A stretch of 51,671 bases of DNA from a virus (lineage: Duplodnaviria; Heunggongvirae; Uroviricota; Caudoviricetes), in IMG/VR virus record IMGVR_UViG_2718218104_000010; one strand, written 5' to 3'. The position numbers were made by a program. Of the stretch, positions 18,001 through 21,000 are shown one piece after another (position 1 is the stretch's first letter; each line of letters begins with the position of its first letter).

Positions 18001-21000
18001 TCGCCCGGTTAAGCTCATCCAGAGAAGCCGCCGTATATTCAATTCTGCGACCATCTTTCTGGACAGACACCACCCGTTTACCGGTTAATAAATCAAGGCG
18101 CGCCTGACGCAGCGCCTGCAGTTCAGCGACTGTAACCATTCACTCCTCCGGACAGCTTCGCTGCCAGTTCTTTCAGGGTTGGCCGGGTCGTCTCTTCTTC
18201 CCGGGATTTTGCCAGTACAGCCAGATCAAGCTGCCAGCGTTGCACGGACACACGTAATGCCGCGTAGGCATACACCAGGCAGTCCAGCGCTTCGTTACGC
18301 CGCTTTTTGTTATCCCACAGCAGACGCATCTTTCCTTTTTCCCACTTCTCCACCAGCTCTTCCGCCACCAGTTGCTGCGCCTCTGTCTGCGAAAAAATCT
18401 CCGGATCATCAGGAAAACGGATGGCATACGACGTGGCTTCATCCGCAGGCGAGGGATCGGCTTTCATACGGGCATAGAGAATTTCTTTTGCGGTGTCCGT
18501 TCCCACTTCACACAGATACACGCCCCGCTGATTGCGGGTTTTTGGCATGGTGATCACCGGCTTGCCATAGACAGATGCGCCTTTTACCGGCAGCACCCGG
18601 AAAACACCGTGTTTTTTTGATCTCTGATAAACAATTTCACCATCGATCCCCCCGGTGTCCCAGCAGACACGGGAAATAGTCATTTCGGTGCCATCCGCAT
18701 GGCGGTATTTTTTGTTGATCGCCGCATCCACACGTAACAGCGTCTCTTCCTCATCAGGACGCCCCATAATGATGATTTTATCCACCAGAAAGGCTTCCTC
18801 TCCCGGAGCCCATCCCCAGACATACATCTCAAAACGGTTTCGCTGCGAGTCAATGCCCGCCGTCAGATAAACCACCCGGGCAGGCACCGCCGCCGTGTAA
18901 CGCACCACCTTATCCATCAGTACCTGGTGATCGAGTTTTTCGCCCACGGCCTCTTCCCAGGTCTCGCCCAGCGTGGTGTTCACAAAGGTTTTCAGGCCGT
19001 TGGGATCTTTCAGTGCATCCAGCCAGTCATAGACAATCTGTACCCAGGTGGTGAACGGACTGTACGCCGTCCAGATATGGAACATGATGGAGCGCGGCGG
19101 CGGAATTTCATCACCCCGGGCGCTGAAAAACGTCAGACCGTCACGGGTCCACATGCCCGTGTTTTCACAGATCCACCGCCCGTTGCTCTGGTCCAGTTCA
19201 GACTGATGGATCACGCAGCCATGATGTTCACAGAGGTAGAAAACACTTTCAGGGCTGTCCTTCTCCCATTTAAGCCCAAAAGGCGTGGACTCATCGCCAA
19301 ATTTCAGATACTGCGCCTCCCCACAGTGCGGGCAGGGCACATAAAAACGCATAAAATGCGCCGACTCGTTAGCGGCTTTTTCGATCTGGCAGGTGCCTTT
19401 GATTTTAGGCGTCGAGCCGCGAATGGATTTTGGCCACACCGACCCCTCAATACGCTTATCCCCCAGCAGGGTTGGCGAGCCCTCTTTTTCGACATCCGGC
19501 TCGAACGAGGAAAGTTCGTCATAGCAGACCACGTCAACGGATTTTTCACGGTAGTTTTTGGCGGCAGCGCCGCCCAGGCACCAGAAACCGACGCCCGATG
19601 AAAAGCGTTTCAGCGTGAGAGTATTGTCACGATGTTTACGACCCAGCCATGGGGAAAGGTCTTTCAGGCATGGCACGTTCCGAATCGTCGCCTCCACGTG
19701 AGACTTCATAAAATCTTCAGCGGCAGAATCCGTGGGCTGAAAAAGCAGACTGTTTCGGGATTTATGCTCAATAAAATACCCGCCCCCCCCCCAGCAACAT
19801 CTTTGTATAGCCAACACGGGCAGATTTAATCAGATTAACAGTGCGGATCTGATCATTCCCCATACTGTTCATGATGGCGATCTGGAATGGCAGCGTTTTC
19901 CATTCGCCCTCACCATATGAAGATTCTTTAGGCAGATAATAATTTTGATCAGCCCATTCAACTGGCGTCACCGGCAATGCCCTTATCAGGGGCTGTAATG
20001 CAGTTGTGACAGCGCTCATCATATTATTCAGTTGTTGCTCTGATATATTCATCAAGTAAATCCGGTAATTTATCCCCTGCCCGCGCACACTGATTTGCCC
20101 CCTTAGCAATAAGGGTTTTCAGATGGTCAAGATGGCGCGGTGTTAAATCAGGAAACTGTCGCTGCATGGATAAAGGGATGGAATCAAGCGTACTGGATAA
20201 CGCCATTGCCAGCTTACTGAGGGCAAAAATACAGAACCCGGTGTCAATCAGTTTTCCTTTTGACACCTCATTTTTTAAGTAAGCGTACAGCGAGGGCCGT
20301 ATTGACGGGGATGTGTTATTCAGCTGGCAGTGCTATGCGCCACGGAAGCAGTTCGCTGACCCGGTTGACCGGCCAGTCTGCTATGACGCCAAGCACATGG
20401 CGAAGGTAGCTTTCTGGATCCACGTCATTCAGTTTGCACGTCCCGATCAGGCTGTACAGTAGCGCTCCCCGCTCACCACCATGATCAGAGCCGAAGAACA
20501 GGAAGTTTTTACGACCCAGACTGACCGCCCGCAGGGCATTTTCAGCGATGTTGTTGTCGATTTCCACCCAGCCATCGTTCGCATAGTACGTCAGTGCCGG
20601 CCACTGGTTAAGTGCGTACGCGAACGCCTTCGCCAACTCTGAGTGTCGCGACAGGGTCTTCATCTTTTCACGCAACCAGCTTTCCAGGGATTTCAACAAC
20701 GGTTTCGTTTTTCGCTGACGTTCAGCAAGCCGCTGCTCTGCCGGCATTCCCCTTATATCCGCCTCTATGGCGTACAACTGACCGATCTGCTCCAGGGCTT
20801 CTTCCGTCAGTGCTGACGGGATGCGGACGTGCACATCGTGGATCTTTCGGCGGGCATGAGCCCAGCAGGCAGCTTCCGTTATCCCACCATTGCGATACAG
20901 CTCGTTGAACCCGGCGTACGCATCCGCTTGCAGCACACCGCTGAAGCAGGCAAGATGAGTCTGCGGATGGATGCCTTTTCTGTCCGGGCTGTAAGCGAAC

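Follow-up and report, generated by a model that had tools for sequence, protein, structure and literature searches.

The large terminase gene (terL) of the window, a stretch of 51,671 nt of DNA that was analysed over its whole length, is a pseudogene of the lambda gpA-type family and not a working member of it. By its sequence, the window is identified as the defective lambdoid prophage Sp4 of Escherichia coli O157:H7, and its terL is very likely a frameshifted derivative of an allele with nine G (G9), which would have arisen by slippage within a hypermutable tract. The gene is already annotated as "frameshifted" by PGAP/RefSeq, and a frameshift pseudogene in such a well-described defective prophage represents ordinary gene decay. 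Two points go beyond the preliminary description of this DNA: the run of G arose secondarily in the O157 Sp4/Sp14 gene (V89G/V90G), and the twin prophage Sp14 has the same unstable tract.

The G10 tract and the reading frames of terL

A run of ten C occupies exactly positions 19783-19792 on the plus strand (...ACCCG CCCCCCCCCC AGCAAC...) and is G10 on the coding minus strand, where the sequence across the tract is AAA TCT GCC CGT GTT GGC TAT ACA AAG ATG TTG CTG GGG GGG GGG CGG GTA TTT TAT TGA. No other homopolymer in the 51.7-kb window reaches nine bases. Upon shuffling of the sequence, nine-mer matches were obtained at a mean of 0.37, with two or more matches in eight of 100 shuffles, and a C run of nine or longer is not very rare by composition itself. 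The element that is not due to chance is the coincidence of the run with the one break in frame of a gene that is perfectly conserved elsewhere. The organization of terL is as follows.

18123-20052, minus strand: terL pseudogene (lambda gpA-type large terminase), 1930 nt; the extra G is the sole difference from intact 1929-nt alleles
19768-20052, minus strand: 5' part of terL, encoding a 94-aa product
19783-19792, minus strand: G10 homopolymer at terL codons 87-91; +1 relative to the G9 of in-frame alleles
18123-19817, minus strand: 3' ORF of terL, 564 codons as listed; remaining ATPase domain and nuclease domain, in the other frame

The upstream frame starts with ATG at 20052 (MNISEQQ...), is shifted by +1 within G10, and terminates at TGA at 19768-19770 (...KMLLGGGRVFY*), leaving the gene with an interrupted reading frame. 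Its 94-aa product is composed of 90 native residues, including KSARVGYT, followed by RVFY and the stop. The second frame stays open between 19817 and 18123 (...GGGGYFIEHK... / ...GGGGYFIEHKSRNSLLFQ...), and the segment 19768-19817, in which both frames are open, is the overlap of the two ORFs. The location of the run and of this overlap was given correctly in the preliminary description, which also proposed that a lambda-A-like gene had been broken by one additional G and that nine G would restore its frame. This proposal was borne out: upon deletion of one G in silico, an ORF of 1929 nt was formed, whose 642-aa product has KMLLGGGGYFIEHK at the junction, and the repaired gene was identical at 1929 of 1929 nt to terL of Sp4 in strain Sakai and to the intact terL of Sp14 in strain PA20 (WP_001302857.1).

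The repaired protein carries both domains of lambda gpA-type TerL, PF05876 (GpA_ATPase, E 5.8e-54) and PF20454 (GpA_nuclease, E 1.6e-71), and shares 66% aa identity with lambda gpA over 639 residues. In the window, GpA_ATPase profile positions 4-45 are found in the N-terminal piece, while positions 49-247 and the whole GpA_nuclease are found in the second piece (Pfam). The 94-aa N-terminal peptide would be the only product, with neither a complete ATPase domain nor a nuclease domain, and low-level slippage of polymerase or ribosome on G10 is possible. The position of the gene is that of a lambda gpA-type gene, directly downstream of nu1, the 3' fragment of which overlaps the terL start. The tract sits a few residues after the Walker-A-like motif KSARVGYT, which the lambda literature regards as the gpA Walker A sequence; the following segment would then form the initial helix of the fold of the ATPase. 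A literature search on this Walker-A string gave nothing specific, and no solved relative of the terL protein was found by PDB sequence search.

Prophage Sp4, its twin Sp14 and the packaging genes

The region matches many complete genomes of E. coli O157:H7 at 100%, and the window is colinear with prophage Sp4 of Sakai, in the reverse orientation. The 15-24 kb interval departs from Sakai Sp4 at three sites alone: the tract, with its additional C, a single SNP within ISEc8, and a single A indel. The other packaging genes of the window are also defective.

20279-22716, minus strand: ISEc8 (IS66 family) in nu1, with 8-bp direct repeats TTTTTTAA at 20271-20278 and 22717-22724
20024-20278, minus strand: 3' fragment of nu1 (small terminase subunit), Pfam Phage_Nu1 positions 99-163 of 164
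22717-22979, minus strand: 5' fragment of nu1, colinear with the intact nu1 of Sp14
14144-14407, minus strand: major capsid gene, truncated; another defect in the packaging/head module; Sp14 has the same truncation

The truncated capsid gene (14144-14407) abuts the major tail gene in the window. The insertion element in nu1 that was mentioned in the preliminary description is thus identified as ISEc8, accompanied by a target duplication of 8 bp. At Sp4, ISEc8 in nu1 accompanies every tract length, and its insertion should therefore be earlier or fixed. Since nu1 was already lost in cis to ISEc8 and the capsid gene is deleted, there would be no selection against a slip at Sp4, which, with all tract lengths linked to nu1::ISEc8, would cost this prophage nothing usable in cis. 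The sole conceivable effect of the slip is on the TerL pool available in trans. The frameshift is secondary decay in a prophage with its packaging functions already lost, and carries little biological weight.

It had been proposed in the preliminary description that the slip, together with the IS in nu1, would abolish DNA packaging. The disruption of nu1 stands, but the role given to the slip was overstated, because ISEc8 had already removed the Sp4 terminase and the capsid gene is deleted. In Sakai, where nu1::ISEc8 leaves Sp4 as the sole lambdoid prophage that lacks an intact terminase, Sp4 DNA is nevertheless packaged in trans, "most likely" by the terminase of Sp14 (PMC2669165). The cos site and Nu1 of Sakai Sp4 are identical to those of Sp14, and Sp14 DNA itself, in spite of an 'intact' terminase, was not found packaged (PMC2669165, Table 2).

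The head-tail module is identical between Sp4 and Sp14, including the truncated capsid gene; because the same capsid deletion is present in both, the whole module must be common to the two prophages by duplication or gene conversion. Sp14 of TW14359 and that of strain 4276 both show the capsid truncation (21215-21478 in L138, from strain 4276, and 14841-15104 in L139).

Within 15-24 kb, no SNP near the tract usable for haplotyping was found between the window and Sakai, and an IS629 insertion was used as the clade marker in place of linked SNPs. Two IS629 copies, at 23792-25101 and ~37523-38839, are absent from Sakai Sp4, and one at ~28211-29526 is full length while its Sakai counterpart is internally deleted; these three are the IS629/IS1203 copies of the window. 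The IS629 junction at 23792, beside the holin gene, was detected in eight of 5426 genomes (4276, 9234, 2159, 2149, 1130, Gim1-1, NE92 and NCCP 13918), and from this rare junction the window is assigned to a small subclade of eight genomes.

Against Sakai Sp4, 147 SNPs were counted, most of which are clustered at 2000-6500 and 9000-10500 of the window, corresponding to the tail-tip (J) and tape-measure regions, and this clustering suggests recombination with other lambdoid prophages. Nine clustered substitutions against Sakai within 52 nt (31292-31343) of a 616-aa ORF (29648-31498) resemble a short patch of gene conversion whose donor was a paralogous prophage. At the prophage end, positions 1-852 gave offset self-matches with a period of 141 nt, located in a tccP2/EspF-like effector (pseudo)gene. 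A phage-borne tRNA cluster is present at 31988-32237, for which ARAGORN predicts tRNA-Arg(tct), tRNA-Arg(tcg) and tRNA-Met(cat), the last being annotated as ileZ in Sakai.

Tract length among genomes and origin of the G9 run

Tract lengths at the Sp4 locus were determined using synthetic queries that join the tract to the ISEc8/nu1 junction. The comparison among isolates, as recommended in the preliminary description, revealed 8, 9, 10 and 11 G at this ISEc8-linked locus, among which only G9 is in frame. At least 60 genomes have 9 G (Sakai, EDL933 and Xuzhou21 among them), at least 12 have 11 G, and strain F7349 has 8 G; the ratio of 10, 9, 11 and 8 G was approximately 7:6:1:1 in an evenly spaced ranking sample (about 290 genomes with the locus). 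The exact 90-mer with 10 G is included in 174 complete-genome records of several deposit series, and at least 40 of the genomes listed, TW14359, EC4115 and SS52 among them, carry a 10-G allele that matches without difference over 2231 nt. Exact matches at any locus amounted to 192 records with 9 G and about 32-34 with 11 G, and both 9 G and 10 G are present among IMG/VR viral contigs from isolate genomes. In a literature search, no description of tract polymorphism in Sp4/Sp14 terL was found.

Close relatives disagree in tract length, with 10 G in FRIK2533 and FRIK2069 against 9 G in FRIK2455, and 10 G in strain 117 against 11 G in strains 136 and 138. Within the subclade of the window, six genomes of two accession series have 10 G and strain 2149 has 9 G. 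Such disagreement between near-identical genomes fits real instability and assembly error at a run of G9-11 equally well. Complete O157:H7 genomes disagree repeatedly at the G8-11 tract, which is useful as a check of assembly polishing and poor as a typing marker.

The terL tract of Sp14 is 9 G in PA20 and 10 G in TB21-1 and TW14359, and all combinations of the Sp4 and Sp14 tract states occur among strains.

Sakai: Sp4 9 G, Sp14 9 G
TW14359: Sp4 10 G, Sp14 10 G
7636 and ECP17-46: Sp4 10 G, Sp14 9 G
2017C-4109, FRIK944 and Rafaela_II: Sp4 9 G, Sp14 10 G
7784: Sp4 10 G, Sp14 11 G
TB21-1: Sp4 11 G, Sp14 10 G
F7349: Sp4 8 G, Sp14 9 G

In strain 4276, a member of the subclade of the window, terL of Sp14 differs from terL of the window by one base, its tract being GGGAGGGGGG (L138, 15830-15839). 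This allele, G3AG6, is 10 nt in length and frameshifted, with a longest run of six, and was found in exactly seven genomes, all belonging to the IS629-marked subclade. Since G3AG6 is common to these seven genomes, a tract of +1 length is inherited in the lineage of the window, and since the tract is interrupted by A, it is not a homopolymer miscall. G3AG6 is uniform in its seven genomes, while the uninterrupted G10 of Sp4 deviates in one (strain 2149). Reads could be mixed between Sp4 and Sp14 during polishing, as the two copies share many kb of identical sequence; the A/G difference between them stays separate in all seven subclade genomes carrying G3AG6. With G10 at Sp4 and G3AG6 at Sp14, the subclade of the window has no in-frame copy of this terminase, and the same holds for many O157:H7 genomes, including TW14359. 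Because an in-frame terL is lacking, the help of Sp14 in Sp4 packaging, as inferred in Sakai, may not operate in such genomes.

The tract position was compared with 73 intact full-length homologues (88-99.7% identical), in which the sequence is GGGGGTGGTC or similar, with no poly-G run. In close homologues from other E. coli the sequence is CTG GGG GTG GTC GGG, or L-G-V-V-G (clone D i2, O26, O145 and 87 of 120 IMG/VR loci), and other homologues carry GGA GTC GCC (GVAG) or GGC GTG GTT. Over 1929 nt, the O157 allele has just two private nucleotides, T266G and T269G, which lead to V89G and V90G (codons 89-90; window ~19784-19789, minus strand). Residue 89 is Val in all 73 homologues and in lambda, and residue 90 is Val, Ala or Ile. 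This alignment indicates that the G9 run is derived, two T>G changes having fused G5-T-GG-T-C into G9; no single-T intermediate between GGGGGTGGTC and G9 was found among the 120 IMG/VR loci. Even the "intact" 9-G allele thus has Gly-Gly just past the ATP-binding motif, in place of the otherwise invariant Val-Val, and the TerL activity of this in-frame GGGG allele appears doubtful and is not to be assumed.

In the proposed course of events, run-extending substitutions would have generated the G9 tract in the common terL of Sp4 and Sp14, and strand slippage during replication would then have given the ±1 and +2 alleles, of which the window carries +1. Gene conversion between the identical Sp4 and Sp14 modules probably redistributes these alleles. 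The tract would be a mutational hot spot, drifting between 8 and 11 G at both Sp4 and Sp14. Another IMG/VR contig (L057; IMGVR_UViG_2563366822_000003) carries at 1-1957 a mosaic terL, 97% identical overall and adjoining an uninterrupted nu1, the central segment of which is identical to the O157 allele, with a 10-G tract. Because this mosaic holds the O157 10-G segment in a 97%-identical background, the tract is being moved around by recombination.

Alternative explanations and comparison with known systems

Long-read and pyrosequencing assemblies are prone to error in long runs of G or C, and the source isolate could truly have 9 G and an intact gene, as the presence of near-identical genomes one G apart and the record of 9 G for strain 2149, one of the eight subclade genomes, might suggest. 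This is improbable, however, for the window: the identical 10-G allele recurs in the 174 records of several deposit series, the six subclade genomes of two accession series agree on 10 G, contigs of IMG/VR from isolate genomes show 9 G as well as 10 G, and the paralogue within the subclade carries an inherited 10-nt tract with an internal A and a longest run of six. Sequencing error as a general explanation, one of three alternatives raised in the preliminary description, is ruled out by this recurrence and by the inherited interrupted tract of Sp14; another of the three, a genuine slip, is supported, and the extra G of the window is very probably a real mutation. The third, a phase-variable tract, held as to the variation in length among isolates but not as to function, with no sign of a selected on/off switch. 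Such a switch would imply that reversible change between 9 and 10 G toggles the terminase shared by Sp4 and Sp14 and gates the mobilisation of two effector-carrying defective prophages; if true, the only lambda-type terminase for the common cos site would be toggled, and gene conversion would spread the states between the twins. A poly-G of 8-11 near the 5' end of the ORF, its variation in closely related isolates, in both paralogues and in all combinations, and the role of the Sp14 terminase as the proposed helper of Sp4 packaging (PMC2669165) are in agreement with this idea. It is nevertheless very unlikely, because no "on" state is possible at Sp4 with nu1 interrupted in every allele, an intact capsid gene is missing from both prophages, many genomes such as TW14359 and those of the subclade of the window are without an in-frame copy, functional relatives have no such tract, and the two changes at otherwise invariant Val resemble decay and not design.

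Recoding might also yield full-length TerL in useful amounts, either by slippage of RNA polymerase on G10 or by ribosomes shifting +1 at GGG GGG GGG, just ahead of the rare codon CGG. Transcriptional slippage is well known at long homopolymers, the run lies where both frames remain open (19768-19817), and tRNA-Gly would be able to re-pair anywhere within it. A conserved signal is, however, absent, the genes of all 73 intact homologues and of lambda being single ORFs without the run, and on this ground a programmed frameshift was ruled out. In addition, recoding is unnecessary for the 9-G allele of this gene, and the full-length product would still be without its cis partner Nu1. Production of useful TerL by this route is therefore extremely unlikely, and a slippage-generated pseudogene of the G9 allele stays the preferred interpretation.

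The terminase genes of the window resemble lambda gpA and Nu1 in the GpA_ATPase plus GpA_nuclease architecture, the overlap between nu1 and A, the gene order nu1-A-W-B and the conserved motif KSARVGY[ST]. They differ from the lambda genes in that terL is frameshifted at codons 87-91 and nu1 is split by ISEc8, and at the position of the poly-G of O157 terL, lambda has GVYA while close relatives have GVVG or GVAG. Sp4 of Sakai (CP-933M-type; Asadulghani et al. 2009, PMC2669165) is the same prophage, nu1::ISEc8 and the truncated capsid gene included, but its tract is 9 G and its terL is in frame, in contrast to 10 G in the window. The origin of the tract may be likened to transient-misalignment ('dislocation') mutagenesis and run-length-dependent slippage, in that each T>G change extends the neighbouring G run and ±1 changes follow, as such a model would predict; two independent substitutions under relaxed selection would, however, give the same picture. 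The tract is also similar to the contingency loci of Neisseria, Haemophilus and Campylobacter with poly-G/C, being a homopolymer of about eight or more bases (G8-11) in the 5' part of an ORF, with changes in length that toggle the frame, one length in frame and polymorphism in relatives; length differences were found also among close isolates, where real change and assembly error are inseparable. E. coli is not known to make normal use of homopolymeric tracts for phase variation. The terL tract is different from these contingency loci with respect to selected function, rapid reversible switching and phenotype, of which it shows no sign, and belongs to a decaying prophage gene.
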